Shown here one piece after another: positions 20,159-49,809 of a DNA stretch of 64,000 bases. How positions within the stretch are numbered: the stretch's first letter is position 1; the number at the start of each line of letters is the position of its first letter. Source of the stretch: an uncultured virus (IMG/VR IMGVR_UViG_3300033074_001867) (lineage: Duplodnaviria > Heunggongvirae > Uroviricota > Caudoviricetes). Made by a program: the position numbers and the translations under genes. The stretch lies in the IMG/VR virus record IMGVR_UViG_3300033074_001867; one strand, 5' to 3'. The notes beneath the pieces were generated by a model. It ran no database searches, was not told where the DNA came from, and saw nothing but the letters and a program-made list of their open reading frames with translations.

Positions 20159-20568
20159 TGATCCGCAATATCCGCTACCAAGCCTACTACATTAACAAGT
20201 GGTACGATATAGAACGATTTGAACTGTTCACTAATGGTTCTATGCTTCCTACTAAGTTTGCAGGATTCACAGTTCCAATCGTCCGACAGAAAATATCGTA
20301 CATTCGTCAGTTCACGGATATTCAGGACAAGTACAAAGTAGATATCTGGGAAATGGATTGTGTGAACTACAAAACAGAAACAGAAGATGTGATCGGAGTA
20401 GTGGAATTTGATACCAAGATCTTCATGGGATGGGTGATCCGTACCAATAAAGGTCTTTTAAAAATAGCCGATGATGCAGTCAGACCGGATGATCTGCAGG
20501 TAATCGGAAATGCAGTGAAGAGTCCGGAGTATATGAGGGTTATAAATAAAAAAGAAGAAAAAGTATGA
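20158..20568 (+). CDS. YopX-family protein
   Basis: IRQFTDIQDK...DIWEMDCV...VIGN pattern. Confidence 0.65.
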   Translation: MIRNIRYQAYYINKWYDIERFELFTNGSMLPTKFAGFTVPIVRQKISYIRQFTDIQDKYKVDIWEMDCVNYKTETEDVIGVVEFDTKIFMGWVIRTNKGLLKIADDAVRPDDLQVIGNAVKSPEYMRVINKKEEKV

Positions 20569-33444: not shown

Positions 33445-36400
33445 ATGAAAAAAACACTCCAAGGATTTACGGTTTTAGATTTAGAAAATGATCCCTTGTC
33501 AATTGCTCCGGGCGGATACCGAGGTGCGCTTGATATAAGTCTGCTTTCCGATGGCAATGGAACGACTCAGAGTGTAGAGCCGGTCCTAGGTAATCAGTTT
33601 ACAGGTGACATGGGATCAGTGGCAGCACAATCTCAGATCATGCGTATCCAGCTTGCTACAGGTGCCGGAACGTATTCTCTTATTTTTAAACGTCCCAATT
33701 ACATTACTCTTGCCACTGTTTCCATTGCTCAGAATGCAAGTGCAGCAACTACGGTAAGTAATGCGATCACTGCTATTACTGCTGCTATTCCGGAAGCTAC
33801 AATTGTCAATTCATCTACTACTGATGTGTATGTGGATGTACTGATCTCAGATACAAGTTTGATTCAATATTGGGAGTGGCAGGTGTTCAATAACAGTGCT
33901 ACTCTTGCTGAGTTTACTATTTTACAGGAAGCAATTGATTTTGGTGCAGCAGGAGTATTTAAACCGATCGGATCCTTTGATCTACTCGGAGATCTGTTTG
34001 TATGGGGAGCTACTACTGCAGATGTTCCTGCAACTTTGGATATTGTTGCTATCACCGATAAGAACGGAATGGTGGAACTGGAAGTTCCTAACCATGGAAT
34101 TGTCGATGGAGCCGCTGTATCTGTATCAGGAGTAATTGATAACTCAGGAAATTCTTTGAATGGAGTATGGATTGCTCAGTCGGTAGTCAACGGATTTGGC
34201 GTTATTGATGCTGACCGATTTGTGTTGTATGGAAGTACCTATGATGCTCCGTATACGCTTACCAGTGCAAAAGTAACGATCAATATTTATTCTATGGGTC
34301 GGATCATTGTCTCCCAGGAAGATGTGATCGCCGGAACATTTACCAATACTGTTCTTCTTACTTCAAAAGAATTAAATTTAAGAGTACGGAAACAGGTGGA
34401 TACGTATGTAGAAAATAATTCTCAGTATACCGGGCTTTATTTTACGGATGGTTTTAATCCGATCAGAGTTCTTTATTACTACGGCGCTTATGCTACCAAT
34501 GGTTTTTTAAATAATTACTCTTACGGAACGATCGGTCAGGAATCGAGACTGATCATTCAGGATAGCAATATTACACTTGCCTACAACTCTACTATTACAG
34601 GAGTAGGTCAGTTAAAGAGTGGTGATTACCGGTATGCAGTACGATTTGTAACAGCAGGAGAAAGTACTTCCGGGTGGACGCAGTTAAGTAATATCATTAA
34701 TATCTACGAAGGACCGTTACTGGTAGGAGATACCGATGGAACGGCTACTTCAAGAGCGAATGTTTTTGATGTATCGGGAATTCCTTCCGGAATTTTTAAG
34801 TACATCGAACTTGCGTATGTGATCTATCAGGGAGAAGCCAATGCTGCTTTCTCTGCAGGACGATTTGTGATCACAGGACCGACTATGCAGTTAACGCATA
34901 CAGGGTATGGTACAGAAACAGAAGTTGATCTTGGCACATTACAAAGTGTGTATGCCGGATATGAAACTGCTGAAAGTCTTGATGTGCTTAATAACAAGAT
35001 GATCATCTCCAATCTGACCACTAATCAGATCAGGGATTTCTCTACGTTTGCCCAAACACTTACTCACGCCATTGAACGGGAACTAATTACCAGTGTTGGT
35101 ATCAGTACAACTACCGCTTTTGATAACTACCGATTTGGAGAATATTTTGATCCTCAGAATACATTCGGTAAAAAGACATTTGTTCATAATGAAACCTACC
35201 GGTATGCTCTTCAGGTAAAGCTGAAGAATGGTCCGCTACTGAGTAATAACTTCTGGATAGATGATATCCGTATTGATACCAGAGCCAATAATAACTTAGC
35301 CGATCCTACTTCTAACCGTAGAACTGCAGGTCTTACCGATTACCGTTTAATTGATTTTGCAGGAACGGGCAATGTGTATATCGCAAAAGTGGTCTTTGGA
35401 AATATTGACTGGAATTTTCCGATCGATGGAATCCGGCTGATCGATCTGGTAGAACGTATCTACATCAATCAGGTAGAAATGACCTCTCAGTACAAAGAGA
35501 TCTTAGGTACCGGATTGTGCGTGTATTTTGCAAGGTCTTCAGAGAACGTTAATACTACGGGTAATGACTTTGGTGCAGCTCAGGCGAACTGCCAGGTGCC
35601 GAACAGTTGGGCAACAGCAAGTTTGCAGGGAGAATTTAACTGGTTTACCGGGAACTCAGAACTTGATAACGGTACACTTCCCGGAGAATTACCGGTAACC
35701 TACAGTGATGCCAGAGTTGTAAAAACAGAAGGAATCAAATATGTTTCTTTCTATTCTCCTGATGATTATTTTAATAACGAATCTTTTGATTATAGGTCAG
35801 AAGACCGTATGCTGCAGTTTGTAGAACAAGACAGAGCAGTAATTGATAGCGATCAGGCCAATCAGGGTTATTTTGGAAATGCCTTTAAAGGAAAGTATCA
35901 GGAACTACTTGGAGGGACAGGAACTGATCCACTTGGAACAGCCTTTGATATTTTGCTCAATGATGTTCGTCAGGTCGGTATTGGAGGAACAGAAACATTT
36001 GGTGCCGTAGGTATCAGTGTTTCAAAAACGTGTTTCATTGGATGGGAAGACAATAACCTTGTGGCATATACAAACACATGGAATGCTCCGGCTTCTCCTG
36101 TGTGCTATGCCCAGTCAGGATTTGCACCCACTACTACCGGACACAATTATGGTCAGTACTACCGGCCAAAAGGATTTTATTTAAAGTTCGGGCCTAAAAA
36201 GGATAGTAAATATGTTCCTACCGGAGCTTATATAGATGCTCCTGCTATTGGAGTGATCGATACAGTGACCGTTTATGGAGATTCATTTACCCAAAGTTCG
36301 TTCTATAAACTACGTGCTCCTGCTGAACGCTACACTCCTTTTGGAGATCCTGCGATGCCGGTGCCTAATCACTTTTATCAGAATGGATGGGGTTATCAGA

Positions 36401-38322
36401 CGATGTTCTATTCTCAGAACAGAGTGAACTCCCAGATGCGCTATCCTAATAACGGACTTCCATTAAGTATCACTCCTTATATCTCTATTGATCAGTGGAA
36501 TAATGTGGCCTCTTTTGATAATGTCACTACTTCCTATACGGCAAGTTTTACACCCAGAAATCAGGTAAATGTACTTCCTGCCTATGATCCTGATGCAATT
36601 GATACGACTAAATTCCCTACACGGATAGCCTATTCTCAGACAAAGCCAAATGGCAGTACCACCGATGAATACCGGGATTTTAAGCCACTGGACTTCCGTG
36701 ATCTTGATATGGTCTCAGGAGCAATTATACATCATGAAATTTCTAACGGACAACTACTCACCTGGCAGCAAAGAAGTTTTCAAAGACAGTACTTCAATGA
36801 TACCGGTGCTCTTGTCTCCGCTGACGGATCAGAAGTCATCTTAGGTGATGGCGGTGCTCTGACCAGAAGAGGAGTAACACTTTCTTCTATTGGAACTACT
36901 CATAAATGGAGTATTATCAAAGGAGTTTCCAAAGGTGGTAATGATGTGATCGCATGGTGGAATACAGAATACGGATATGTGATCCGGTTCGGCTATGATG
37001 GCGTGAATCCTATTTCTTACGTTCATAACATCAATGGCTTTGTCGATAAGAATACCAAATGGGTCGATCTCAGACATACTCCTGCCGATGACGAAGGAAT
37101 TCGTGGTGTGTGGAACGATGAACGAAAAGAATACATCTGGACCATCAGAGGATTTAAAACGAATAAAGGAAGATTTAATCCTCGTAAATATTATGCTGCC
37201 GGCGATTCGGTATGGGTGTATGAAGGACTGACGCAAACTCCGAATATCTATAAAGCATTACAGGAAACCCGTGTTGTTCAAACGATCACGCTTCCTCCGG
37301 TAAGCATCTTTGTAAATAACGGAGATTTCTCAGCAGGTCTTTCCTGGTGGGTGACTAGCGGAGGTGGAATTACTGCGGTGCCTGGTGCTGCTCGTTATAC
37401 GAATCCGGGAAGTACAAACTTCTTTGGAGCACTCAATCAGGGACTTGCGGTAGTAATTGGAACCACTTATGATGTGACTTTTACGATCAGCAACTTTACA
37501 GATACTTCCGGAAATTTAGAAGTGAGAGTAGGTTTTAACAGTGCTACTGCTCCGTTCATTGTGACTGCAAATGGTACCTATACTGTTCCGCTACTGTGTG
37601 AATTCAGTCCGGCACTTGTGTTTTCTACGATCAGCAATGGAACGGGAGACACTTTTGATGTGACCGGTATTTCTGTGTTCAGACCTTCAGTGACTACTAC
37701 TTATTCAGTTCCACAACCGATAACAGATCCGGATTATTGGGAGTTACAGACTTCTCCGCTTGACAGAAATCAGTATACACTGGCTTTCTCAGAATTTAAG
37801 AACGGATTTTCATGCTACTACTCTTTCCTTCCATTGTTCTATGCAAAATGGAAAAAGAGCTATGAGTCCAATCCTGCTTTCTTTCCTCAGAACTTGTATA
37901 TTCATAATCGTGGTGCGTATAGCAGATGGTACGGAGGATTTGTGATCAGTAAGCCTTATATCATGGCGGTGCTGAATGAGAATCCAAATGATAAGAAAAG
38001 TTTTAATTCGATCGAATTGAACAGTTTGTTAGAGCCGAACAGTAACGGTAATGCGATAGATTTTCAAACGGAACAACATATTAGCTATTTACTTGCTTCT
38101 GATTTTGAACCGGATGAACTACATGATATCATGAGAGCATCGTGGATAAAAAATGACGCTACGGTCACTGCTGAAAATCCTAGTGGACTAAACGATATTG
38201 ATACCTCAGAACTATTCGGTGAATACCTGTTACTGAAATTCTACTTCACTCCTGAGATGTATAATAAACTCTTTGCAATGACAGTGAGCTATCAGATGCG
38301 GAGCAGGATGAATAATACTTAG
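33445..38322 (+). CDS. tail muzzle/stabilisation protein with accessory insertions
   Basis: 1625 aa, beta-rich; TRIAYSQTK, TLAFSE...FS.YYSF.P, KKSFNSIELNS motifs; CBM-like NGDFS insert. Confidence 0.7.
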   Translation: MKKTLQGFTVLDLENDPLSIAPGGYRGALDISLLSDGNGTTQSVEPVLGNQFTGDMGSVAAQSQIMRIQLATGAGTYSLIFKRPNYITLATVSIAQNASAATTVSNAITAITAAIPEATIVNSSTTDVYVDVLISDTSLIQYWEWQVFNNSATLAEFTILQEAIDFGAAGVFKPIGSFDLLGDLFVWGATTADVPATLDIVAITDKNGMVELEVPNHGIVDGAAVSVSGVIDNSGNSLNGVWIAQSVVNGFGVIDADRFVLYGSTYDAPYTLTSAKVTINIYSMGRIIVSQEDVIAGTFTNTVLLTSKELNLRVRKQVDTYVENNSQYTGLYFTDGFNPIRVLYYYGAYATNGFLNNYSYGTIGQESRLIIQDSNITLAYNSTITGVGQLKSGDYRYAVRFVTAGESTSGWTQLSNIINIYEGPLLVGDTDGTATSRANVFDVSGIPSGIFKYIELAYVIYQGEANAAFSAGRFVITGPTMQLTHTGYGTETEVDLGTLQSVYAGYETAESLDVLNNKMIISNLTTNQIRDFSTFAQTLTHAIERELITSVGISTTTAFDNYRFGEYFDPQNTFGKKTFVHNETYRYALQVKLKNGPLLSNNFWIDDIRIDTRANNNLADPTSNRRTAGLTDYRLIDFAGTGNVYIAKVVFGNIDWNFPIDGIRLIDLVERIYINQVEMTSQYKEILGTGLCVYFARSSENVNTTGNDFGAAQANCQVPNSWATASLQGEFNWFTGNSELDNGTLPGELPVTYSDARVVKTEGIKYVSFYSPDDYFNNESFDYRSEDRMLQFVEQDRAVIDSDQANQGYFGNAFKGKYQELLGGTGTDPLGTAFDILLNDVRQVGIGGTETFGAVGISVSKTCFIGWEDNNLVAYTNTWNAPASPVCYAQSGFAPTTTGHNYGQYYRPKGFYLKFGPKKDSKYVPTGAYIDAPAIGVIDTVTVYGDSFTQSSFYKLRAPAERYTPFGDPAMPVPNHFYQNGWGYQTMFYSQNRVNSQMRYPNNGLPLSITPYISIDQWNNVASFDNVTTSYTASFTPRNQVNVLPAYDPDAIDTTKFPTRIAYSQTKPNGSTTDEYRDFKPLDFRDLDMVSGAIIHHEISNGQLLTWQQRSFQRQYFNDTGALVSADGSEVILGDGGALTRRGVTLSSIGTTHKWSIIKGVSKGGNDVIAWWNTEYGYVIRFGYDGVNPISYVHNINGFVDKNTKWVDLRHTPADDEGIRGVWNDERKEYIWTIRGFKTNKGRFNPRKYYAAGDSVWVYEGLTQTPNIYKALQETRVVQTITLPPVSIFVNNGDFSAGLSWWVTSGGGITAVPGAARYTNPGSTNFFGALNQGLAVVIGTTYDVTFTISNFTDTSGNLEVRVGFNSATAPFIVTANGTYTVPLLCEFSPALVFSTISNGTGDTFDVTGISVFRPSVTTTYSVPQPITDPDYWELQTSPLDRNQYTLAFSEFKNGFSCYYSFLPLFYAKWKKSYESNPAFFPQNLYIHNRGAYSRWYGGFVISKPYIMAVLNENPNDKKSFNSIELNSLLEPNSNGNAIDFQTEQHISYLLASDFEPDELHDIMRASWIKNDATVTAENPSGLNDIDTSELFGEYLLLKFYFTPEMYNKLFAMTVSYQMRSRMNNT

Positions 38323-38645
38323 TAAGAGAAATAAAAAACTAAGTTTTCGTCTGCTTCCATTTCATTAATGGCTTGAAGTAGTCGTGGTTGTGCCAATTCC
38401 TCAATATTTTCTTTTATCCAATTACGTGTTTTATTAAAATCAATAGGGCGATAGTATTCTGGATATTCTTCTTCTTTATCAACATATTCAAATAATCCGG
38501 ATACTGCAAAATCTTTATCTCCGCCATATCTACACGAGTCCCACCATTTAGGTTCTTCTGTTTGATAGTACATCACAGTTTTACCTCCCCATGTTTCTTC
38601 TGGTTGCTTTCCTGTAATCTTGTAAAGTAAAATATTTAGTCCCAT
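38319..38645 (-). CDS. hypothetical protein, last gene of the inverted cassette
   Basis: 108-aa MGL-start ORF, AT-rich, convergent with the muzzle gene. Confidence 0.7.
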   Translation of the reverse strand: MGLNILLYKITGKQPEETWGGKTVMYYQTEEPKWWDSCRYGGDKDFAVSGLFEYVDKEEEYPEYYRPIDFNKTRNWIKENIEELAQPRLLQAINEMEADENLVFYFSY

Positions 38646-38646
38646 C

Positions 38647-38739
38647 TTAGTATATTATCATGTACACATTCCAAATAATATATGCTATTCCTGTAATTAG
38701 GAGAGCGATAAGGACTTGGAAGGCGGTGGGTTTTTTCAT
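38647..38739 (-). CDS. 30-aa single-TM peptide
   Basis: MKKPTAFQVLIALLITGIAYIIWNVYMIIY*; stop 1 nt before the next ATG. Confidence 0.5.
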   Translation of the reverse strand: MKKPTAFQVLIALLITGIAYIIWNVYMIIY

Positions 38740-38871
38740 GTTATAAAAATAAGCGAACCGATTATCCAGCCCAATACAAACCAACAAGTCATACCAATGG
38801 AACTTACAAAACTTCTCATGGGGTTTAAAAGAACTTTACGCTTTTGTAATTAAAATTTGACGTTAAAGAGC

Positions 38872-38920
38872 TTTTAATTTTCACTTTTGAGATTTGAGGT
38901 TTTATCTTTCAGCTTTTCAG
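38872..38920 (-). repeat. seven tandem degenerate heptamers NNNNAAA
   Basis: CTGAAAA GCTGAAA GATAAAA CCTCAAA TCTCAAA AGTGAAA ATTAAAA. Confidence 0.7.
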
Positions 38921-38930
38921 TTGTTTGGCT

Positions 38931-39003
38931 AACTATTGCTCTAACCAGCTGAGCTACACGCCCTTTTCGGACTTGACAGGAGTTGAACCTGTGACCCATA
39001 GTT
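38931..39003 (-). ncRNA. circularly permuted tRNA mimic (YrlA-like topology)
   Basis: T-arm ACAGG-TTCAACT-CCTGT precedes a loop-closed acceptor stem and D-arm GCTC-AGCTGGTTA-GAGC; no anticodon loop, no CCA. Confidence 0.85.
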
Positions 39004-39111
39004 GATAGCAGCATCCGCATTGCTGTGAGATCTCTCTCTTGGTTCCTATTTGACCCTGTAGGACGGGATTGGTGTTTGTGATTTTCAGATAACCGGTTCG
39101 CTAGTTTCTTT

Positions 39112-39741
39112 TTATACTGTTATTTTTGTCACTGCATTTATCTCGCTGAGGGCGGCATCAATTTCCATTTCAAACTCAGAAACTTCTTTATTAAGAGAAT
39201 CAATTTTCTCTTTTACTTTCAGTGGATCGAACAAATGAAATTCGTTGGCAGAAAGATATGGCGTTCTCACGTTGTCCATGTCTTCCTTGTTTACTTTCGT
39301 ATTTTCTTTTCCGAAAGTAGCTTCCAAGATTCGCTGAATGTTCTGATTTACCATGTCGTTACCACGATTTAATTCAGCAAGTGCAGCATTGTATTTTGAA
39401 GTAAGAGTAGCGATCAACTGTTTTTTGAAAATTATTGATGCTTTCATGTTGATAGCATCAGCAATTGTCATTTTCTTTCCTGCAACAGTAACGGTTGTTT
39501 TACCATTGGCTTCTACAATTGCAGACTTGATCGTAGATTTACGAGTGATCAGATCACTGATCGAATCATACTTTGACTGAGCGTCGGATTTAAAATCATC
39601 AAGTGTGATGTGGTTAGCGATCAGCTTGTCTTTCTGGTGTATTCTAACCGGAAGCAATTCTGTGATCTGTTTTTCGATTTTAGAGTCAATCAGCTTTAGT
39701 TCTGCTAGTGCTCTGTGGATAGTCATTTCTTCTTTTGCCAT
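39112..39741 (-). CDS. long coiled-coil protein (DIP1984/DUF6847-like)
   Basis: MTIHRALAELKL...IKSAI..AN..T.V...MTIADAI...EIDAALSEINA.T.I pattern. Confidence 0.65.
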   Translation of the reverse strand: MAKEEMTIHRALAELKLIDSKIEKQITELLPVRIHQKDKLIANHITLDDFKSDAQSKYDSISDLITRKSTIKSAIVEANGKTTVTVAGKKMTIADAINMKASIIFKKQLIATLTSKYNAALAELNRGNDMVNQNIQRILEATFGKENTKVNKEDMDNVRTPYLSANEFHLFDPLKVKEKIDSLNKEVSEFEMEIDAALSEINAVTKITV

Positions 39742-39762
39742 CTTCTTTTTGTTTTAAGACTA

Positions 39763-39818
39763 CAAACATACGACACTATCCGATACTGTACGCATTCGGA
39801 TTGAAAAGTTATTAACAA
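39763..39818 (-). promoter_or_regulatory. Bacteroidota-type promoter of the inverted cassette
   Basis: TATGTTTG at 39763-39770, CG cores at 39771/39781/39791, TTGTTAATAA at 39809-39818. Confidence 0.65.
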
Positions 39819-39826
39819 GGCGTAGG

Positions 39827-39882
39827 TAAGAGACAAAATTTCGATTATAACTCCATATCGCACTGCAAATAATCTATTTTTG
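39827..39882 (+). promoter_or_regulatory. putative late promoter
   Basis: TAAGAGACAAAATTT 48 nt before TATTTTTG. Confidence 0.6.
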
Positions 39883-39899
39883 GGACAAATCCATTAAAG

Positions 39900-40697
39900 A
39901 TGATCCCACTACTTCCTCTTGCGGGAATGGCCTTCAATGTTGTTCATGGACTTGTTCAACAGAATCAGGCAAGAAAAGGCTTAAATTCCCTTGTTAAACC
40001 ACAAGGATACAATACTACTCCCGAACAACAACAGTCGTATGAGCGTGCTCAGAAAGATGCCATGAGTGGGTATTCTGCTCAGGAAAGGGCTGCGTACCTT
40101 TCCAATCTGGCATCGAGAAACAATGCCGGTTATTCCAGAGCAATGAAATTTGGTGGTAATGGACTTGCAGGAGCAATTCAGGCAGGAGTCAATTACGGGA
40201 ATTCCAAAGCGCTGAATGACTTTGCTGCTAATGATGCACAGCTTCGAAGAAGTAATGTACGGTATGCAGATAGCCGTGGAGATGTGATCTCAGGACAAAG
40301 AAATAGAAATACTCAGCTGAAAAATCAGGAATACAATCAGGCAGCACAAGCCTACGGTGGAGCGATCAAAGCAGGAAAAGAAAATGTTTTCAATGCGGTT
40401 AATCTGTTCTCTGCATTAAATCCGATGGCTCTTGGTGGTATCGGTGGTGGTGCGGCAAGCAGAATGGGTGGAGGAATCACTTCTTCAGCAGGAATGCCGG
40501 ATGAAATACCTGAAACGGGAATGGGAGATGGTGCAGATGCAGGATACACAGAACAAACTTTATTTAATCCTGGGGCGGTTCCTTCAGCAACAGCAAGAGC
40601 TGATGCAGGAATTGATTGGTCTGGTGGTAACGCATGGGGAAAGCCTAATCCGAATTACGGAATGAGTCAATTAATACCTTATCAAAGAACTCGTTAA
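39900..40697 (+). CDS. ejection/cargo protein 1
   Basis: Gly/Ala/Gln-rich, low-complexity, follows the muzzle gene. Confidence 0.6.
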   Translation: MIPLLPLAGMAFNVVHGLVQQNQARKGLNSLVKPQGYNTTPEQQQSYERAQKDAMSGYSAQERAAYLSNLASRNNAGYSRAMKFGGNGLAGAIQAGVNYGNSKALNDFAANDAQLRRSNVRYADSRGDVISGQRNRNTQLKNQEYNQAAQAYGGAIKAGKENVFNAVNLFSALNPMALGGIGGGAASRMGGGITSSAGMPDEIPETGMGDGADAGYTEQTLFNPGAVPSATARADAGIDWSGGNAWGKPNPNYGMSQLIPYQRTR

Positions 40698-42373
40698 TGG
40701 CAGGTATAGGAGAAGCAATCGGTTTACAGGATAAGCCCAATTTATTTGCATCACAGGCAGCAGGAGCACTTGCCCGGTTATCGGCGGAAGAATCTGCAAG
40801 AGAAGCAGCCAGAAGGAAAGCTCAGGAAAAAGATGAAGCGGATACCAAAAAGGTAATTTCCGATGCGGATATCTATTCTAAAAATACAACCTGGCACAAG
40901 ATGTATGCTCCGGCAGTACAGCGGGAGATGGCTGATTTTGCCAATGACTACATAAACTACAAGTCAGAAAATCCAAATGCTCCGGGAAATGGTGCATATG
41001 CGGTAACCAGATTACAGGAACTTTCAGCACGCATGAACCGATTGAAGCAAAGTAACGATGCCTTCAAAGACTTTGAAAAAGGTGTGCAGGAAGGAAAGTA
41101 CTATGCAGATCCGAATCTGTTCAAGAAAATATATGAAACCGATTTTTCAAAGAAACTTTATCGTGATGATAACGGAAGAGTAGTCAGTGGAGATTGGGGC
41201 GGATTGAAACCTGATGAACGTTACGGTGCCATGATTGATGCCAACGGAGATTTCATCTCTAATCCGGTAAAGAAATTTGACTTTCAGAATAAGATCGGCG
41301 GGTTTATGAATAACTCAAATGTCTGGACAGAGAAATCACTGATCACTCAAAGACAGAAAAAAGGTGTTCCGGGAATGTATGAGGATATTTCTGTAAAAGA
41401 AGTGGATCCATTGCAGCGGGAATCATTTGTCGATGAGATCACTACCAATCCTGATGCAGTTCGTGCATGGCAAATTGAAAATAAGGATAGGCTGGATGAT
41501 GCAAGAAAGAAAGATCCTTCATTAAATAATGAACGAAATTATTCTCAGTTCGTACAGGAAACGATGGCGGAAGATGTGAGATTAAAAACTTCCGGAAGGA
41601 AAGAAGATCGTGTTGGAAGACACATTGCACCTCCGAAACCACCGAAGCCGGCAAAAGAAAGTAAAACATTGTCGCTGGATGCTTCTTTAGATGATCTGAT
41701 GAAATACATGACAGAATCAGAAGAGGAGATCATGGCTGATCCACAAAGAGTAGCATTACAAGACAATGTGGACCGGTTAGCAGGAGAAGTGGAAGAAGCA
41801 GAAGGAAAAACTTCTTTTGACAAGGACAAATTAGCCGGAATGAAAGCATCTCTGGAAGAGCAACAAGCCAAACTTGCCGGAATGGGAGATGTGAAAGCAG
41901 AAACCAAATACAATTTCCCTGTAACTTTAAAGACAGAAGGCGCAAGTACGGTAGTGAACAATAATGATGATGTGGTCGATCTTGCTACCGGAAAGAAATT
42001 GTCCGGAGTAAATCAGTTCAAGTTCATTCCAAGGCTAATAAAACTTCGAAAAGTTGGTGGAAAATGGAAGCCGTATGTGTATGGAGAGTCTACAGATAAA
42101 ATAGCGGCAACTGATAAAAATGGAAATACAGTTACGGATAAAACAGCATCAGCTACCTTTGCGGTTCCTTTAGATAAAGTAGAAGGATTTTTAAATAAGA
42201 ACGGTAATCCTACTAAGTGGGTGAGTGAAGCTATTCAGAAGGCTGGTGGTGCTGCAAAAGAAACTGCAAGCGAACAGGCATCTGACGAAGTACAAGAATT
42301 TGTAGTCGGTGGAAAGAAATATCGTGTACCTGCAAATGAAGTAGCGGCATTTAAAAAAGACATGGGACTTTAA
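40697..42373 (+). CDS. ejection/cargo protein 2
   Basis: 558 aa, TAATG-coupled, Cys-free helical protein. Confidence 0.6.
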   Translation: MAGIGEAIGLQDKPNLFASQAAGALARLSAEESAREAARRKAQEKDEADTKKVISDADIYSKNTTWHKMYAPAVQREMADFANDYINYKSENPNAPGNGAYAVTRLQELSARMNRLKQSNDAFKDFEKGVQEGKYYADPNLFKKIYETDFSKKLYRDDNGRVVSGDWGGLKPDERYGAMIDANGDFISNPVKKFDFQNKIGGFMNNSNVWTEKSLITQRQKKGVPGMYEDISVKEVDPLQRESFVDEITTNPDAVRAWQIENKDRLDDARKKDPSLNNERNYSQFVQETMAEDVRLKTSGRKEDRVGRHIAPPKPPKPAKESKTLSLDASLDDLMKYMTESEEEIMADPQRVALQDNVDRLAGEVEEAEGKTSFDKDKLAGMKASLEEQQAKLAGMGDVKAETKYNFPVTLKTEGASTVVNNNDDVVDLATGKKLSGVNQFKFIPRLIKLRKVGGKWKPYVYGESTDKIAATDKNGNTVTDKTASATFAVPLDKVEGFLNKNGNPTKWVSEAIQKAGGAAKETASEQASDEVQEFVVGGKKYRVPANEVAAFKKDMGL

Positions 42374-45300
42374 TGGGAAAATGGGATAAATATGCAGTTG
42401 AAGATACTGTTGTAGCTGAAGGTGGAAGCAAGTGGGACAAGTATGCGGTTGAAGAAACGGTAACAGAAACTCCTGCAAAGCAAACAATAAACGAAACTGT
42501 TACTGACATTCCTGCTGAAAGTTCTATTCCTACTGTTACCATGGATGCCAATGATGGACTTGTTCCTGAAGGCAGCGGTGAATTCGACATTAAAAATCCT
42601 ACTAAAGCTACCGGTGTAATTAATATTCCAAAAGGAGGTGTGACCTCTGTTGCTCTTCAGGTAGAACAGGATAAATACAATCGTTCACCGGAAGTTATTG
42701 CAGAAAATCAAAAGACGGTAAACCTTCAAGACAGTAAGCGTAAAATCATTGAAGACAATAAAACAAAGATCCGTAATCTTGGATTAAGTACTTCTTTTGC
42801 CGCAGCGAATCAAGATCCAATGGAGGGTCAGCAGCAGCAACAAATTGAAGGTGGCTTGCCGGGTAATGCAGTGGAAGCGGCACCAACCGATTTTGAAACC
42901 GGATTAAATGAAATATTAAATCCAAAAGAACTTTCTTCAACTGCGCTATTAGATGATAATGATCGAAAAGAATTATTGGAATACGCAGACAAGATTAATA
43001 AGTATGCTCCTGCAATCCAGCAACTCGGAAAGCAGTTAGAGCAAGCTCCTGATGATGTAAAAACATTAAATGACCTTGCGGATAACTTATCTGCAATTGA
43101 TGATAAGCAAACGGCTCTTTCATTGTACTCTAAAGCGAATGCAATCAAAGAGAATGGTCAATCTTTAATGGGGCTAGGGAATGTGTATTTGCAAGCAGGA
43201 CAAGACGAGGAAGCAATTAAAGCGTTCTCAGAAGCCTTTGATAAAGATGGGAATCCTGATGCACTGATAAAAGCGGCATATACCGGATCTCGAATGGATA
43301 ATTTTGAAGGATCTGACAAAATATTAAAAGAAGTAAAAAAAGAATTCCCAAACTATTCTTATTCGTATGCGCTTTCTGCATATAATAAAGAAGCAAGTGG
43401 AGATGTATCAGGAGCGAAGGTAGATAATGCTATCTATGAAAATCTTCGTCAGATGGAACTTTTGCCTGAATCTGTAAACGCAGATGATCCGAATTCTGAT
43501 TATGCGAAAGAACGTGCTTCTCAGCAAGCCCGGATGGGAAATGTAGCAGCAGCAATAGCAACTCCAATCAATTTCTTTGGTGAGATGGAAATGGGTGCAA
43601 TCAAAGGTGGTATTAAAGGATTGAAGAAAATCGGCCAGGGTGCTTATGATCTTGCTATGCCTAATTCGGCAATAGTGGGAAATAAAAGTGATGATAAGAT
43701 TGGCGCAATTTTAAATATTGCTAATGGTGCGGCTGAAACTGTTTTCTCAGGAGCAATGGCAATGACACCGGTAGTGAATGCCGGATTTCACATGCTCCCT
43801 GAATCTGTGAATAAAGTTCTGATGCAGCCACTTAATGTCATTGGAGATTTATCGGACGAAGAACTGGCAAGTTATAGCAAAAACACGCAAGGAATGTTTG
43901 CTCTTGGAAACACACTTGCTTCCATATTGTTACTGGGAGCAGTTCACAAAGGACCAAAGAAGTTTACTGCAAAAGAAAACGAAGCAATATTAAATATTGT
44001 AAAAGGTGAAGCAATTGAGGGTGAAGGTCTTTCATTAAAAGGAATTGTTGACAAAGCAAAGAAAGTACTTGAAGAGTCGAAGCTAACTGATTTTCAAGAT
44101 GCAGAAAAAGTATGGACTTCTATTCCTAAAGATCTTTCTACTCAGGATAAATTGGTAGTAGCTCCTGATCTGATCAAACGTGAGCAGTTACAGGAAGAAA
44201 TGGCAAAAGCCTCTCCTGCTTTTAAAAACTACTTTAAAGAGAAGATCGATAAGGTCGATGAAGATATCAATGCGAAACTTTCTATCAATTTAGGATTAAA
44301 AGAACAGGCAGCAGAGAAGACAAAATCGGCGGAAGCGCCACCTAAAACCATAACCAATGAAACAGTCAAAACCAGTAAAGTCGAAGAAGGTAGTGGTAGT
44401 AAGCAAGCCGAAGTCATCCGGAAAGATGAAGTCGGGCAAGAAGTGCTGATACCAGAGTACAGTGAAAAGCTAAAAGATGTTTCACCTGAAACCAAGGTTG
44501 TGGACCTTCCTGATGGAATATCAGTGGAGTTCAATGGCGAGAAGGGAACGATTGGGAGATCGGAGACGGGTGAAACACTTTTTATTAATGCAGAAGGAAA
44601 AGAAACAATTGTCGGTGGTGGTGGAGATGTGTCTACACTAGCAGAAAAGGGAATTTCCCGTACTGAAGGAACTTATTCAGATAAGCGTGGAGATTATTAT
44701 GTGAAGGATGGGCGGGTATTTGAAGTTACCAAAGATGGGCTGAAGCCTGTTTACGAAGGAGAGAAAGCCAATGTAGAACGGAAAGAAGCGATTATTCGTA
44801 AAGCTCTTAATCCGGAGAAGCCGAAAGAGAAAATTGTTGAACCGGTAGTTGAAGAGAAACCAATTGAAGTTAAACTTGAAGAAATAAAAACTGAACCGGT
44901 AGCAGAAACACCGAAAGTCGTAGCAGATACTCCTAGTTCCAGACCGATAGAAAAATTTGAATCGGAAGTAGCTTTTGAAGAAGCGGGATCAGGTCATAAT
45001 GTTTTATTTACCGATAAAGACGGAAAGAAAAGTGTAGTAGGGAAAGTATTTGGAACAGAAGGAAAAACAGGAGCAGAATTTGATTCGTGGGTAAAACCAC
45101 AGATTGAAGCAATCCATTACAAAGAAGTAGTAAAAGCTGTTGAGCGAGGAGATGTTGTTCCAAAAGAAGTTCTTGACCATTATTTATCTTCTAAAATAGA
45201 AGGTGATTACAATGGAATGTTAGCTGAAGCAATTAAATCGGTAAAAGAGAATGGTCCGAAAAAAGAAATTTTCAGCGAACAGGAGATTGGTGAAGTAATG

Positions 45301-48300
45301 GACAAAAGAGCTGAGGAGCTTTCTCAAATGAAACGAACGAAGGATTATGTGTTTCAGCTCATTCACGATAATTTTGGTGGAATAACAGAAGCACAGTGGA
45401 ACAGATTTGGAGACTCAGGTTGGCTGAAAGGAAAAGAAGGAAAGAAGTTCAGAAAGAAATATATTAAAAACGATGCCGGGAAGACAGACACAAATGATTT
45501 TGGATCATTTAGCTTATCTTCTGGAGAGGGTTCTAGTATAGAAATTACTCCGCAAAATGTTGTGGATTACATCATGGACCGTGAATTTAATCCAAAGAAG
45601 TATGACGGAAGGTTAAAACAATGGAACGATGCAGCGAGTATTCCTAAAAAAGACGTACCTTCATTATTAAGTGGTGATGATGCAATGGTATTAAGTATTG
45701 CAGAATCTAACCGTGGATTGGGAATGACCGATCTGGAAGTGGATACAATCAAAAGATACGTAGAAAGCAAAGCAAAAAATGAAGCAAGAGCGAAAAATAC
45801 CAAGCCAAGATCAGCAGAAAGCACACCAAAAAGTGAGGGAGTTGCTGCAAAGAGCGAACGAGTGGGACGAAAGCCAGGAGAAAAAGCTCAGAAAAAGAAA
45901 GATGAAGCTAAAAGTGTAAAGGCTGAAGAGAGTAAGTATGTTGAAGCGGAAAAAAAGATCAGTAAGATTTTTGATACACTTCGAGCGAAACTGATTGCTG
46001 ATCTTCCGGAAGGAACAAAGAAAAGTGGTGTAGGTGCGAAAGAGGTGCTGGATGCTGCGGAGAAAATTGTGAAGGCTGCGCTGAAAGCCGGGGAAGCGAT
46101 TGAAAAAGCTATTCAGAAAGGCAAGGATTACATTAATGAGAATTGGAAGAAGGAGTTTGGTGATATTGAAAATATTATTGGGAAAGAATCAGAGGTTAAG
46201 CCAAAAGGATTAAACCAAGATCAATTAAAAATTGCCGAGTCTAAAGATTTTAAAGAATGGTTTGGTGATTGGGAGAAAAAAGAAGGAAGTGTAAGCAAAG
46301 TCATAAATAAAGATGGAGAGCCATTAGTTGTATATCACGGCTCTCCAAAAATCTTCAGCGACTTTAATTCAAACAAATTAGGAGAATATACTGGTGCAGA
46401 TTTATCAAAGGAAGGGTTTTTCTTTTCTGATAAAAAGAGTGTATCAGAAACATACAGGAAAGCGGCAGTTTTAGATAGTCCTAATTTAAGCAAATTGAAT
46501 AATGCTTTAGGAAAGCTGACTGATAAAAAACTAATAAAGCTACTAAATAAAGTATTTGGTTATGGAGAAAGCCAATTTGAGGGGACATCTAAAAAAGATT
46601 TAATAGAAGAAATTTTTAGGGATGTCGAAATTGATTCAGAGGGGGTTTATTCGGATAGGCGAAAATATATTGAGGGTGTTTCTGAATTCTTAAAAAAAGA
46701 AGGTATTGAGTTTAATCCGTATAAAGATATAGGTAGCACGAATAGTGTTTTTTTAAATATGAAAAAACCATTCACTCTTGATGCGAAGGGTGAAGATGTT
46801 CAACAATTAGAATTATCTGATATATTTAAGAAAATCAAGAAAGAGGGACACGATGGAGTTATTATAAAAAACGCTTATGATGCAGTAGTTTTTGAAGAAA
46901 AAGGGTTTGATAATATAAAGTCTAATTTATATATTATTTTTAAGCCAGACCAGGCGAAGATTATTAATAATGCAAATCGTGTTTTCGAAAAAGATAACCT
47001 ATCAAAATATTATGGTGCAGAGAAGTCGGTTAAAGCGGCATTTGAAAAGCTCCGTGAAAAACTAATTCCCAAGTTACCGGAAGGTACAGAGAAAATGGGT
47101 CTTGGCATGGAAGAGCTGCTCAATGCAGCAGAGAAAGTGATCATCGGTGCAATCAGAGCAGGAGAGAAGATCGATGTAGCTATCAGCAAAGGACTTGATC
47201 ACTTAAAAGAAAAGTGGGATGATTCCTTTGGTGAATTCCCTGAGAAAGAACTGCGTGATATTTTAAAGGAAAACGGAGAAATTCAGTTGTCTCACGAAAA
47301 AATAGATGCTTTAAGAGAAAAACATGGACTGGAAGAAAGAGAGATCAATGATCCGGTTTCTGTTGAAAAGACTCGTGCTGAAGCACAAAAGATAATTAAA
47401 AAAGGTTTTGATGTTATAAAGCTATCTAATGATGTTTTAAAAAAGGAAAGAACAATCACTCCGGTAGAACGTGCGATACTTGCAGAGCGTGTGGCTATTT
47501 TGAATAAAGAACTTTTGGAAGGTGATACCGCTTCTCCTGAGTATGCAAAGAAACTTGAAGAACTTGATAAAATATCTAAAGCGGCTGCTATTGCAAACTC
47601 TGCTGCGGGTTCTTCTTTAGGATCAATTGCACATTTAAAAGTAGTGCCGGACGAATCACTTGCCGGTTATTTTCAGGAACAGCGAAGAGTTAACAAAGAA
47701 GGTGCGCTTACTGAAAAGCAAACTGCTACCAACAAAAAGGAATTTGAAGAAATCACCAAAGTAAAGGAAGCGTACGAGAAAAAGATTGCTAAACTTCAGG
47801 AAGATAATAACCGGTTAAAAGCCGAAAAGCAACTTGAAAAACTTTCTAAAAAAACTTCCAAGCGTACTGCGAAAGAAAAACTCGATGAAGATTTTGACCT
47901 GTTAGCAAAAGAGTTTTCTTCCATTGCAAAGAACACATTGAATGCCGGTATCAATCCTGAACTGATTCCCGTTGTCTTAAAGATGGTGAAAAACCGTGTG
48001 GAGAAAGGCGTGATCACACTCTCAGAAGTGGTGGATGCGGTACACGAAAAGGTTGGTGAATTTGGTATTTCCAAAGAAGATATTATTGCTGCTATTGCCG
48101 GTAAAAGCGGCGTGGAAAGAACACGATCGGAAGTTGCTAAGAATGGTTATGAGTTAAAGCAAGAAGCAAGATTGGTTCAAAAGTTAATGGACCTTCAGAA
48201 TGGTAAGGAGCCAAGTTCTGAAAGAGGAAAGATCCAGAAGAATGCCAGGTTGGAAGAACTACGCAAGCAGATCAAAGAACATGATCTGACAAAACTTGCG

Positions 48301-49809
48301 GAATACAAAAAAAGACTGGATGCTCAGATCGCAGAAGTAGAAAGAGAACTTGCTACCGGCGATTTTGCGAAGGAAGAGAAAGCGGAACCTTTTAAACTTG
48401 ATAAAGAAACGCTGGAACTTCAGGACAAATACATGCAGTTAAGCATGGAAAGGGAAGCAAGGCTTTTGAAAGAAGAGTATGCTCAGAGATCAAAATCAGA
48501 AAAAGCAGGTGATATCGCACTTTCTCTATTGAATGCCCCTATGACTTTAATGAGTGGTGGTGATTTATCTGCTGTTCTTCGTCAGGGGTTAGTTGCTTCT
48601 ACTGCCCATCCAATACTAGCAGCAAGAGCAGGAAAGCAGATGCTAAAATTCTTTAAATCTCAGAAGGATTTTGATAGATGGCATTTTGAAACAAAGAATG
48701 ATCCAAGGTATTTAGCAGCCAAAGAAGCCGGACTTGCTATTGTTGACCCAAAAGATCCGAAACTTGCAGCCAGGGAAGAGGCATTTATGGGAAATATCGT
48801 AGAGAAAATTCCTTTGTATGGTAGCGGTATCCGGCTTGCGAAGATAAAAGATGGCAAATTGGTTCGGACAGAAGGAGAATACGGTGGATTGGTAAAAGCA
48901 AGTGAACGTGCCTATGTAGGGTTTTTGAATAAAATGCGTTGGGATGTTTATAATCAGTTTGCTGAACGATTAGAAGCAAGAGGTATTACTTTTGAAAATA
49001 GTCCTACTACGTACAAAAAGTTGGCATCGTATGTTAATGATTCTACCGGAAGAGGAAATGTAAGTAAGGGAATTGAACGTCTTGCTCCAGCCCTGAATGC
49101 TACCTTTTTCTCTCCTCGTTTGTGGGCTTCTCGTCTGAAACTACTTAGTAATTGGGCAAATCCATGGTGGTACAAGAATGTACCTGCGGAAGTCCGTAGA
49201 TTCTACTGGGAAGACATGGGAAAATTCACTGCAACGGTAGCAACAGTCTATTTCCTTTCAAAAATGAATGGTCAGCAGGTGGAAACCGATATTCGTTCTT
49301 CAGACTTTTTAAAGATCCGGGACGGAAAGAAGCGTTATGATATTCTTGGAGGTTTTCAACAGCCGATCAGAACACTGGGGCAATATGCAACAGGTCAGAA
49401 AAAAGATATCGATTCAGGAGAAATTACAGAATTAACGGACAAGGATAAGTCACTTCCAAACAGACTGTTAGAACAAAAACGACTAGCGGTATTATTACAG
49501 CATATCAGAGGAAAATTATCTCCGGTGCCGGCAGCATTTACTGATTTTGGTATGGGACGTATGATGGATTATTCAGAACCTACGGTAGAGAAAGAGATCA
49601 TGCGGATGATTGTTCCTCTTGCATGGCAGGATATAACATCTGCTTATGGTGAAGAAGGCGCTAAGGCATTTTTAACTACCGGCGTTCCTACGATGTTAGG
49701 TATCAGTGCAAGTACTTATAAGGACAGACCCAAAGAAGAGACTGCAGAAAAACCTGACAAGCCCGAAAAACCGAAGAAAAAGAAAAGAAACAGGTCGGGT
49801 TTTAATTAA
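42373..49809 (+). CDS. giant polyvalent cargo protein with TPR-like region and ART-PolyVal-like ADP-ribosyltransferase domain
   Basis: 2478 aa; FKEWFGDW...SKV...GEPLVVYHGS...GFFFS...VFLNMKKP...GHDGVII...IIFKPDQ. Confidence 0.75.
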   Translation: MGKWDKYAVEDTVVAEGGSKWDKYAVEETVTETPAKQTINETVTDIPAESSIPTVTMDANDGLVPEGSGEFDIKNPTKATGVINIPKGGVTSVALQVEQDKYNRSPEVIAENQKTVNLQDSKRKIIEDNKTKIRNLGLSTSFAAANQDPMEGQQQQQIEGGLPGNAVEAAPTDFETGLNEILNPKELSSTALLDDNDRKELLEYADKINKYAPAIQQLGKQLEQAPDDVKTLNDLADNLSAIDDKQTALSLYSKANAIKENGQSLMGLGNVYLQAGQDEEAIKAFSEAFDKDGNPDALIKAAYTGSRMDNFEGSDKILKEVKKEFPNYSYSYALSAYNKEASGDVSGAKVDNAIYENLRQMELLPESVNADDPNSDYAKERASQQARMGNVAAAIATPINFFGEMEMGAIKGGIKGLKKIGQGAYDLAMPNSAIVGNKSDDKIGAILNIANGAAETVFSGAMAMTPVVNAGFHMLPESVNKVLMQPLNVIGDLSDEELASYSKNTQGMFALGNTLASILLLGAVHKGPKKFTAKENEAILNIVKGEAIEGEGLSLKGIVDKAKKVLEESKLTDFQDAEKVWTSIPKDLSTQDKLVVAPDLIKREQLQEEMAKASPAFKNYFKEKIDKVDEDINAKLSINLGLKEQAAEKTKSAEAPPKTITNETVKTSKVEEGSGSKQAEVIRKDEVGQEVLIPEYSEKLKDVSPETKVVDLPDGISVEFNGEKGTIGRSETGETLFINAEGKETIVGGGGDVSTLAEKGISRTEGTYSDKRGDYYVKDGRVFEVTKDGLKPVYEGEKANVERKEAIIRKALNPEKPKEKIVEPVVEEKPIEVKLEEIKTEPVAETPKVVADTPSSRPIEKFESEVAFEEAGSGHNVLFTDKDGKKSVVGKVFGTEGKTGAEFDSWVKPQIEAIHYKEVVKAVERGDVVPKEVLDHYLSSKIEGDYNGMLAEAIKSVKENGPKKEIFSEQEIGEVMDKRAEELSQMKRTKDYVFQLIHDNFGGITEAQWNRFGDSGWLKGKEGKKFRKKYIKNDAGKTDTNDFGSFSLSSGEGSSIEITPQNVVDYIMDREFNPKKYDGRLKQWNDAASIPKKDVPSLLSGDDAMVLSIAESNRGLGMTDLEVDTIKRYVESKAKNEARAKNTKPRSAESTPKSEGVAAKSERVGRKPGEKAQKKKDEAKSVKAEESKYVEAEKKISKIFDTLRAKLIADLPEGTKKSGVGAKEVLDAAEKIVKAALKAGEAIEKAIQKGKDYINENWKKEFGDIENIIGKESEVKPKGLNQDQLKIAESKDFKEWFGDWEKKEGSVSKVINKDGEPLVVYHGSPKIFSDFNSNKLGEYTGADLSKEGFFFSDKKSVSETYRKAAVLDSPNLSKLNNALGKLTDKKLIKLLNKVFGYGESQFEGTSKKDLIEEIFRDVEIDSEGVYSDRRKYIEGVSEFLKKEGIEFNPYKDIGSTNSVFLNMKKPFTLDAKGEDVQQLELSDIFKKIKKEGHDGVIIKNAYDAVVFEEKGFDNIKSNLYIIFKPDQAKIINNANRVFEKDNLSKYYGAEKSVKAAFEKLREKLIPKLPEGTEKMGLGMEELLNAAEKVIIGAIRAGEKIDVAISKGLDHLKEKWDDSFGEFPEKELRDILKENGEIQLSHEKIDALREKHGLEEREINDPVSVEKTRAEAQKIIKKGFDVIKLSNDVLKKERTITPVERAILAERVAILNKELLEGDTASPEYAKKLEELDKISKAAAIANSAAGSSLGSIAHLKVVPDESLAGYFQEQRRVNKEGALTEKQTATNKKEFEEITKVKEAYEKKIAKLQEDNNRLKAEKQLEKLSKKTSKRTAKEKLDEDFDLLAKEFSSIAKNTLNAGINPELIPVVLKMVKNRVEKGVITLSEVVDAVHEKVGEFGISKEDIIAAIAGKSGVERTRSEVAKNGYELKQEARLVQKLMDLQNGKEPSSERGKIQKNARLEELRKQIKEHDLTKLAEYKKRLDAQIAEVERELATGDFAKEEKAEPFKLDKETLELQDKYMQLSMEREARLLKEEYAQRSKSEKAGDIALSLLNAPMTLMSGGDLSAVLRQGLVASTAHPILAARAGKQMLKFFKSQKDFDRWHFETKNDPRYLAAKEAGLAIVDPKDPKLAAREEAFMGNIVEKIPLYGSGIRLAKIKDGKLVRTEGEYGGLVKASERAYVGFLNKMRWDVYNQFAERLEARGITFENSPTTYKKLASYVNDSTGRGNVSKGIERLAPALNATFFSPRLWASRLKLLSNWANPWWYKNVPAEVRRFYWEDMGKFTATVATVYFLSKMNGQQVETDIRSSDFLKIRDGKKRYDILGGFQQPIRTLGQYATGQKKDIDSGEITELTDKDKSLPNRLLEQKRLAVLLQHIRGKLSPVPAAFTDFGMGRMMDYSEPTVEKEIMRMIVPLAWQDITSAYGEEGAKAFLTTGVPTMLGISASTYKDRPKEETAEKPDKPEKPKKKKRNRSGFN

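Follow-up and report, generated by a model that had tools for sequence, protein, structure and literature searches.

Phages of several families and some bacterial chromosomes carry a two-part module that consists of a helical protein of about 205-220 amino acids (aa) and a structured RNA of 230-500 nucleotides (nt) belonging to the same transcript. We describe this widespread module starting from an uncultured virus of the class Caudoviricetes (IMG/VR record IMGVR_UViG_3300033074_001867), of which the whole analyzed stretch of 64,000 nt is referred to below as the window and which, judging from its sequence, is a crAss-like phage. On the minus strand of the window, the gene for a 209-aa protein, P0001, is followed 9 nt past its stop codon by a 351-nt element. 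This element is a genuine conserved structured non-coding RNA, and it is genetically coupled to the protein gene upstream of it. A preliminary description, read from the letters and a list of open reading frames (ORFs), had reported the gene and the element in this arrangement, with small ORFs following; these observations are confirmed, and the interpretation that was placed on them is partly supported.

The two ends of the RNA pair over 16 base pairs (bp), two of them G-U on the gene strand, or over 17 bp with one further G-U pair; this terminal stem, here denoted P1, had been given in the preliminary description with its 16 bp and two G-U pairs and can be seen directly. A minimum-free-energy fold of the window sequence retains it (-92.6 kcal/mol, z -2.64), and one of 100 shuffles folds as well. 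Because the single-sequence fold is only mildly better than the shuffles, the case rests on comparison with relatives, taken from 80 viral loci with a homolog alignment plus the phages T5 and Bcp1. The sequences past the stop codon share one architecture throughout. A variable 5' arm ending in CG is followed by an A-rich strand, then by a hairpin of the form CCC..GGG and an insert that varies; next come AAAGNUN units in an array with two AAAG..CUUU boxes and the AAAyCC motif, and after a further hairpin and a U-rich strand the element closes with an invariant GGCUG and a 3' arm complementary to the 5' arm.

Covariation bears out this architecture. RNAalifold applied to 26 RNAs, including those of T5 and Bcp1, recovers the terminal stem, with 16 of 18 predicted pairs compensatory, and applied to 12 RNAs that bear the insert it predicts 54 pairs in nine helices. 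Among these 12 RNAs, 95.9% of cells are paired, and sliding the 3' partners by 1-3 columns lowers this share to 36.4-50.5%; changes on both sides occur in 36 of the 54 pairs, including 12 of the 13 consensus pairs of P1; none of 500 shuffles matches any of five structure measures. The structure was predicted on the same alignment on which it was scored, which favors it somewhat, but the slid controls and the compensatory count go far beyond that. For the inner pairing, P2, the preliminary description had proposed ACAAAC..CCAA with UUGG.UUUGU; the 3' strand was right but the register was not, covariation backing AAAUCA with UGGUUU instead. The pairing of the two AAAG..CUUU boxes is the one helix without any variation and thus gives no covariation signal.

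Between P1 and P2 lies a conserved asymmetric junction (GA / GUA..GGCU), for which a k-turn reading was weighed by eye only and dropped. A stem finder anchored on GGCTG found 21 of 79 bacterial loci, few being recovered because the Planococcaceae have a variant junction. In the Planococcaceae copies, G-U pairs are very numerous in P1; such pairs are A-C mismatches on the other strand, and therefore the RNA is read in the direction of the gene. The element of T5 (NC_005859, 43140-43496, complement) folds with z -5.69 and has an intact terminal stem. A terminal inverted repeat of the kind found in miniature inverted-repeat transposable elements was considered and rejected, since its arms covary from one homolog to another and their pairing depends on G-U pairs of one strand. 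A search of deposited phages for direct DNA similarity to the RNA found nothing. With Rfam at a permissive threshold, the gaps of T5 and Bcp1 gave chance-level matches only, the best at E 2.3-2.5.

The association of the RNA with the protein was assessed in 169 loci chosen solely for encoding the protein, using nhmmer and a profile of the 3' core of the RNA, from the array to GGCUG. The core is present on the gene strand past the stop codon in 166 of them, at a distance of 71-334 nt (median 172), with an E-value (E) of 1.7e-31 at 38922-38757 in the window. Two of the three loci that lack a match have no downstream DNA, and the third, from an Erwinia phage (L086), shows the array and GGCUG by eye and a YrlA-like module by Rfam. 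Loci with the 3' core span crAss-like and T5-like phages, Bcp1, Vequintavirinae, phages of Lactococcus and Clostridia, and the chromosomes of Lysinibacillus and Sporosarcina. All nine deposited phages inspected have a gap of 360-1060 nt past the gene in which no genes are annotated. A search for a conserved stem and array downstream of protein homologs had been proposed at the outset, and both are found there.

The protein itself is broadly distributed. By tblastn, homologs occur in 743 of 50,697 deposited phage genomes, all at less than 60% identity; the carriers include T5 (T5.085), T5-like Salmonella, Vibrio and Serratia phages, Vequintavirinae, Bacillus phage Bcp1, Lactococcus phage WRP3, Pseudomonas Otagovirus, and jumbo Erwinia phages. 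A scan for close relatives with the single protein sequence as query found nothing; a profile search returned 3627 cluster representatives at E <= 0.001, of which 1570 also pass E <= 1e-30, and the best 150 representatives are, without exception, 203-232 aa long. A scan of one genome per species added 86 relatives of three kinds: contigs that look like phages, from Bacteroidota and other metagenome-assembled genomes; Clostridia loci within tRNA arrays, which are probably prophages; and single chromosomal copies in many species of Lysinibacillus, Sporosarcina and Solibacillus. In the Planococcaceae the pair is a stand-alone unit with a rho-independent terminator at its end, and its neighbors encode an MFS transporter, a LytS-type kinase, an RNA methyltransferase and an acetyltransferase. 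In a sample of this bacterial family, that of the carrier G001, the pair was found in 19 of 101 genomes. Separately, a close relative of the cassette with its RNA (47% identity) is present on a 247-248 kb contig of Tenacibaculum sp. (L098), which points to a crAss-like element that is integrated in, or was assembled together with, a Flavobacteriaceae genome.

Within the window RNA there is a permuted, closed tRNA-like cloverleaf, arranged in the order closing helix, T arm, 3' acceptor strand, short loop, 5' acceptor strand, D arm, closing helix. It is opened at the anticodon stem, its closing helix being anticodon-stem-like, and closed at the acceptor end. The preliminary description had pointed to a permuted tRNA mimic, and the comparison agrees: all four helices are supported by covariation in the 12 insert-bearing RNAs, and the Rfam model of the YrlA RNA matches the module below threshold (36.1 bits, E 8e-6; gathering 69). 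The same model matches 8 of 13 relatives, including a jumbo Erwinia phage, at 32.7-48.2 bits and none of the others at E <= 0.01. ARAGORN calls no tRNA or transfer-messenger RNA (tmRNA) gene in the window, and Rfam gives no tRNA or tmRNA match there either. In two relatives (L012 and L014), the acceptor stem is extended into a capped hairpin, which argues for a closed, non-chargeable mimic.

The module was found in 14 of 18 close relatives. In a lineage of gut phages of about 150 kb, it is swapped for a tRNA-like cloverleaf of normal order within the RNA, which scores 50-61 bits with the Rfam tRNA model and which ARAGORN assigns to Gly-GCC, Tyr-GTA, or an undetermined type with a two-base anticodon. 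The tRNA-shaped inserts come in three connectivities or lineages, and the conserved property seems to be tRNA shape rather than connectivity. A bioRxiv preprint on bacterial tRNA mimics deals, in its accessible portion, with other RNAs.

The A-rich array that follows the cloverleaf has a 7-nt period. Of 247 AAAG-to-AAAG spacings in 31 RNAs, 59, 35 and 17 are of 7, 14 and 21 nt, respectively, with about 0.8 expected for each from shuffles; the heptamer array noted earlier is thereby upheld. The features of the cassette are collected in Table 1.

Table 1. Features of the cassette and their positions in the window
Feature	Position	Strand	Basis or remark
Candidate -7 promoter box, TAnnTTTG type, 22 nt upstream of ATG	39763..39770	-	by eye
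P0001, gene for the 209-aa helical protein	39112..39741	-	ORF list and translation; stop codon TAA at 39114-39112
Structured RNA, 351 nt, ORF-free	38752..39102	-	begins 9 nt past the P0001 stop codon
P1 5' arm, terminal stem	39086..39102	-	pairing and covariation
P2 5' strand, A-rich	39078..39084	-	compensatory in 4 of 7 pairs
P3 hairpin (CCC...GGG)	39054..39067	-	covariation analysis
Permuted closed tRNA-like cloverleaf	38932..39002	-	YrlA model match and covariation
T arm of cloverleaf	38992-38976	-	
Loop-closed acceptor stem of cloverleaf	38975-38957	-	
D arm of cloverleaf	38954-38938	-	
A-rich array, 7-nt period, AAAGNUN units, ending in AAAyCC motif	38822..38919	-	
Two invariant AAAG..CUUU boxes inside the array	38874-38866, 38836-38828	-	
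3' hairpin	38786..38805	-	compensatory in 3 of 4 pairs
P2 3' strand	38778..38784	-	covariation
GGCUG at the P2/P1 junction	38767..38771	-	unchanged in 26 of 26 aligned RNAs, those of T5 and Bcp1 among them
P1 3' arm, terminal stem	38752..38768	-	pairing and covariation
U-rich tail past P1, likely 3' end	38740..38751	-	terminator-like call at 38773-38754 and U run
Two same-strand ORFs past the RNA: 30 aa, hydrophobic (ATG 38739), and 108 aa (38645-38319)	38319..38739	-	

P0001 matches the family phrog_1491 over its full length (E 5.8e-57), its residues 4-209 aligning to positions 3-209 of the 211-position profile. The label of this family, 'tail fiber protein', is without support here and is a mislabel. 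No Pfam family matches P0001 above its cut-off, DUF6847 (PF20935; gathering 27 bits) is unmatched at E <= 0.1, and there is no NCBIfam match at E <= 1. DUF6847 is matched by 2 of 37 family members, at E >= 0.0055, and the nearest named Atlas cluster also touches this Pfam family. An AlphaFold2 model built on a 37-sequence alignment (predicted local distance difference test, 88.2) has long helical hairpins and a small sheet. The sole match of the protein that stands out, in structure and in profile, is PDB 3kdq, an uncharacterized protein of Corynebacterium diphtheriae, which we take to be locus DIP1984. The match is seen by profile (E 0.0057), by Foldseek on the P0001 model (probability 1.00, TM 0.60), and by VIA-align (151 of 152 residues aligned at Z 10.2; Z 8.0 for the next row). 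Identity is 16-18%, and 3kdq has about 150 aa against the 209 aa of P0001. The resemblance to the DIP1984/DUF6847-like family that had been recognized by eye is thus a remote kinship, detected by profile and by structure, that does not reach the Pfam gathering threshold and leaves no trace in NCBIfam. No nuclease family or fold is matched by the protein in Pfam, Foldseek or VIA-align. Literature searches on DIP1984, DUF6847 and 3KDQ returned no description of a function, only the name 'septicolysin' occurring there, in keeping with the original statement that no function had been described.

The cassette often has genes of stable RNAs in its vicinity. An Rfam scan shows tRNA genes within flanks of about 2-2.5 kb in 22 of 30 loci, and such genes also flank the cassette in KP12, Athena, Bosolaphorus and Slocum. 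Two crAss-like relatives have a tmRNA gene that ends about 60-130 nt before the protein gene: one (L015:1977-2357), which follows a run of six tRNA genes, matches tmRNA_permuted with 59.6 bits, above the gathering threshold of 47, and the other (L018:2025-2432) matches tmRNA with 45.1 bits, just below 47. Recent work, in the part of it available, ties phage tRNA/tmRNA clusters to escape from tRNA-cleaving defenses. On an Oscillospiraceae contig, a RAGATH-36 RNA (L165:928-1060; 84.6 bits, gathering 70), likewise uncharacterized, lies among tRNA genes, 1 kb upstream of the cassette. The place of the cassette changes with the phage family, being in the tail operon in the window, in the early region in T5, and near the portal gene in Bcp1, and therefore it behaves as an independent insert. 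Its initial placement in a tail operon is accordingly right for the window; elsewhere its most frequent setting is a cluster of tRNA genes, with early regions as another. A link to the anti-defense island of the T5 family was considered and rejected, as the anti-retron protein Rad of that family is ORF75, a different protein of 189 aa, according to the available text of two sources (bioRxiv 10.1101/2023.03.15.532788, PMC11555353). In phage SP15 the homolog of P0001 (E0157_083) is located at 42263-42901, about 6 kb past ORF71-75.

The promoter of its own that the preliminary description gave the unit is putative at most. By eye, a candidate box upstream of the gene (39770-39763) has the TAnnTTTG form of the Bacteroidota promoter consensus, and a sigma-70 scan gave 5 sites against 5.2 expected, which is chance level. 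On the 3' side of the RNA, a local hairpin of 8 bp (38773-38754, minus strand) can be built from the GGCUG junction together with the P1 3' arm, just before the U run, so that a terminator-like fold competes with the terminal stem. Public sequencing data include 14 runs with at least half of the sampled words of the stretch and six RNA runs with a small share, and four RNA runs (X15, X16, X17 and X19) were aligned to the stretch. X15, a ribosomal RNA-depleted metatranscriptome, gives a single 333-nt contig (39072-38740, 2 mismatches), that is, the RNA minus its first 30 nt, stopping 12 nt beyond P1 at the end of the U run. The contigs of X16 and X19 cover the downstream ORFs only, and those of X17 cover 38709-38863 and, as a divergent relative, 39585-39900. 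In none of the four runs does a contig reach 39112-39433, which is the 3' half of the coding sequence, and contigs cannot demonstrate absence. Together these data are only a hint of expression.

A close known counterpart is the YrlA RNA, a bacterial Y RNA of the Ro60 system. According to the accessible text of PMC4201824, YrlA has in common with the cassette a long stem formed by the two RNA ends, an internal tRNA mimic with a T arm, a D arm and a loop-closed acceptor-like stem, a gene that adjoins that of the presumed protein partner, and occurrence in both phages and bacteria. The differences are considerable. The scores of the cassette RNAs with the YrlA model (RF02553) all stay below the gathering threshold, the cassette RNA is three times longer and its tRNA-like part is optional, and the 114-position YrlA model lacks the heptad array and the GGCUG junction, both of which are present in the cassette RNA. 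No Ro60/TROVE gene was found among the 54 window ORFs scanned against Pfam (8 + 46).

The window RNA belongs to no Rfam release 15 family at gathering threshold, so the Rfam search that had been proposed as a check turned up no full match to a characterized family. One match nevertheless qualifies the claim of novelty. In a Ruminococcus locus (L105), which is tied to the window RNA by a common 3'-core profile and architecture, RAGATH-27 (RF03100) scores 92.9 bits (gathering 76.1) and spans the P1 5' arm, the P2 5' strand (GAAAAC..AAAC) and the first hairpin. This is the one locus of 30 with RAGATH-27 at gathering threshold, and the window is unmatched even at E <= 10. The Rfam model has 86 positions and one 7-bp hairpin, with the P1 and P2 strands marked unpaired, and therefore captures only a 5' fragment, from one subgroup, of the cassette RNA. 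RAGATH-27, a candidate motif of unknown function that reportedly arose from Breaker-laboratory screens, is thus a prior partial record of one subgroup, and the RNA is not fully novel, although the window RNA itself is in no family at threshold. The term 'RAGATH-27' was not found in literature mentioning RAGATH, and the accessible main text of PMC5737381 does not contain 'RAGATH'.

Other large RNAs are more distant. Neither the window nor the 30 loci have a match to GOLLD, ROOL, HEARO or OLE at the Rfam gathering threshold, nor does the region at E <= 10. GOLLD and ROOL have an architecture unlike that of the cassette RNA, and we know of no dedicated adjacent protein gene for either; what they share with it is a large, structured make-up, an unknown function and a frequent location in prophages and close to tRNA genes, as stated in the part of PMC5737381 available. 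OMEGA-type pairs (TnpB with a RAGATH-18-derived reRNA) likewise consist of a protein gene followed by its cognate RNA, which was first listed as a RAGATH motif (PMC11061315, from the text available), but the cassette has no nuclease domain, transposon end or guide segment. Type III toxin-antitoxin systems (ToxIN) also pair a protein with a repeat-containing RNA. In those systems, of which phage-borne versions exist, tandem RNA repeats of about 36 nt lie upstream of a ToxN/AbiQ-type endoribonuclease toxin. The cassette RNA is downstream of the gene and has 7-nt units in one closed scaffold, and its partner is a helical-hairpin protein without a nuclease match; with gene order, repeat type and protein fold all different, the type III-like role suggested at first is not supported.

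Taking these lines of evidence together, we lean towards the view that the protein and the RNA form a Ro-independent, Y-RNA-like ribonucleoprotein that would act on the metabolism of tRNA or stable RNA. In this particle, which would resemble Ro60-Y RNA but have no Ro60, the protein would hold on to the conserved stem-junction, the heptad array, or both; the tRNA-like module and the A-rich single strand would be displayed to a cellular factor. Most speculatively, this factor would recognize tRNA shape or A-rich single-stranded RNA, a choice made because the module sits in phage tRNA/tmRNA gene clusters; candidates would be a processing or decay RNase or a tRNA-targeting defense nuclease. Working as a decoy or a tether, the particle would then protect or redirect the metabolism of stable RNAs in the infected cell. 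The specific proposal that a DUF6847-fold protein and a scaffold RNA display a tRNA decoy and A-rich heptads, and thereby capture a host factor, or divert it, where that factor attacks or processes tRNAs and other stable RNAs, is tentative and, in our estimate, rather doubtful.

Several observations weigh against such a ribonucleoprotein. The tRNA-like module is absent from T5, Bcp1, the Planococcaceae and 4 of the 18 close relatives and, being optional, cannot be the core function. No recognized RNA-binding domain was found in the protein family with Pfam, NCBIfam or among family members. A prediction of a four-copy oligomer (alignment A3) scored 0.36, the mark being 0.42, and speaks neither for nor against; binding of the RNA by the protein, and oligomerization of the protein, are steps that we infer. 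One canonical DUF6847 gene, in Solibacillus (L170), has no such RNA downstream. The clustering with tRNA genes could simply mirror shared transcription and processing, and contigs from RNA libraries neither define ends nor exclude DNA carry-over. A small test in the reverse direction started from a 17-nt degenerate RNA pattern, which retrieved 118 viral stretches; 103 of these had neither core nor protein and are chance matches. Among the 15 with the RNA core, five have the protein on the same strand, seven have less than 300 nt upstream, two are weak, and one (L226) is a complete 64.6-kb phage genome with the 3' core (E 3.7e-40) and no protein homolog at E <= 0.01. The P1 5' arm of L226 is degenerate by eye, so that it may be either a remnant or a sign that the RNA works without a phage-encoded protein. 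The same genome has, upstream of the core, a second, free-standing YrlA-like mimic of 41 bits, with small ribbon-helix-helix-like ORFs on both sides of the RNA; the two elements are at L226:1607-1699 and L226:1236-1590, both on the minus strand.

The L226 genome is an argument for an RNA that acts alone, as a self-assembling or sponge RNA, with the protein a co-expressed folding chaperone or an unrelated passenger. Conservation of the RNA is indeed more elaborate than a simple protein-binding site would call for, and GOLLD and ROOL are likewise found near tRNAs and in prophages (PMC5737381, as above). We nonetheless regard this as unlikely: the RNA directly follows the stop codon in 166 of 169 loci, across distant lineages and chromosomes, which is hard to explain without joint function, and the L226 copy apparently lacks the 5' arm. 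A cis-acting 3' untranslated region (a stabilizer, terminator or autoregulatory site with no function in trans) would fit the start of the RNA 2-50 nt past the stop codon, which leaves no space for a promoter of its own, and the U run or terminator after it. A length of 230-500 nt, nine conserved helices, a tRNA-shaped domain and a periodic array exceed the needs of known 3' stabilizers, however, and the X15 contig, which covers the RNA and not the coding sequence, speaks weakly in the same direction, so that a purely cis-acting role appears improbable.

Less probable again is a type III toxin-antitoxin-like or abortive-infection pair in which the RNA neutralizes a toxic protein. The compact protein-plus-RNA format, the patchy occurrence in bacteria (the 19 of 101 genomes of the G001 family) and relatives named 'septicolysin' that are reported, in the portion of the literature available, on Acinetobacter plasmids would suit it; the position of the RNA past the gene, its closed scaffold of 7-nt units, and a helical-hairpin protein without a nuclease match would not, nor would the presence of the protein in hundreds of lytic phages (743 records). 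Permuted tmRNA genes have the order T arm, 3' acceptor, loop, 5' acceptor, D arm, and tRNA and tmRNA genes adjoin the cassette; it could be argued from this that the tRNA-like part is a decaying or permuted tRNA or tmRNA gene and the remainder a spacer of a tRNA cluster. We find this barely credible, given that ARAGORN calls neither gene in the window, that short loops or a prolonged, capped hairpin close off the acceptor stem, which shows covariation in this closed form, and that the flanking domains are the most conserved part and are kept where the tRNA-like insert is missing.

If this specific decoy proposal is true, the pair would represent RNA-based counter-defense, or a hijack of RNA metabolism, by a new class of ribonucleoprotein common in large tRNA-carrying phages and present in T5; the targets might be a defense anticodon nuclease or the RNA decay machinery, and the Planococcaceae copies would be domesticated. 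Large conserved RNAs with dedicated protein partners are rare and have repeatedly proved to be new machines; this pair sits in tRNA/tmRNA clusters and bears tRNA mimics in several independent forms. The protein is currently annotated as 'hypothetical' or, wrongly, as 'tail fiber', and the gap that holds the RNA is unannotated in the nine phage records inspected. The analysis also corrects the Rfam entry for RAGATH-27, a fragment of a much larger RNA. T5 in E. coli and Lysinibacillus are tractable, and therefore the role of the pair is directly testable.

In the window, the minus-strand unit is inverted relative to its surroundings and set between the muzzle gene and the next plus-strand genes. 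The ORF at 33445-38322 (+) matches the Crassvirus muzzle protein (PF25731, E 1e-22), and that at 32684-33439 matches tail ring protein 1, both in Pfam. DNA beyond the RNA varies among the relatives compared; the 30-aa and 108-aa ORFs matched no family in Pfam, NCBIfam or PHROG and lie outside the conserved module. In several close relatives (L009, L010, L012, L014 and L016), a small ORF directly past the RNA has a similar N-terminus (K-S-I-T-I-D/E...) resembling ribbon-helix-helix regulators; it is absent from the window. Past the cassette, a 2478-aa ORF (42373-49809, +) with an ART-PolyVal ADP-ribosyltransferase domain (E 1.4e-10) is probably a large ejected 'cargo' protein, and a 1740-aa ORF (51134-56356, +) with SprB repeats and a PKD-like domain is probably a tail fiber or adhesin. 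Among otherwise unmatched early genes, a dual-specificity phosphatase domain (15344-15844, +; E 3.8e-10) and a YopX domain (20158-20568, +; E 8.5e-6) were detected.

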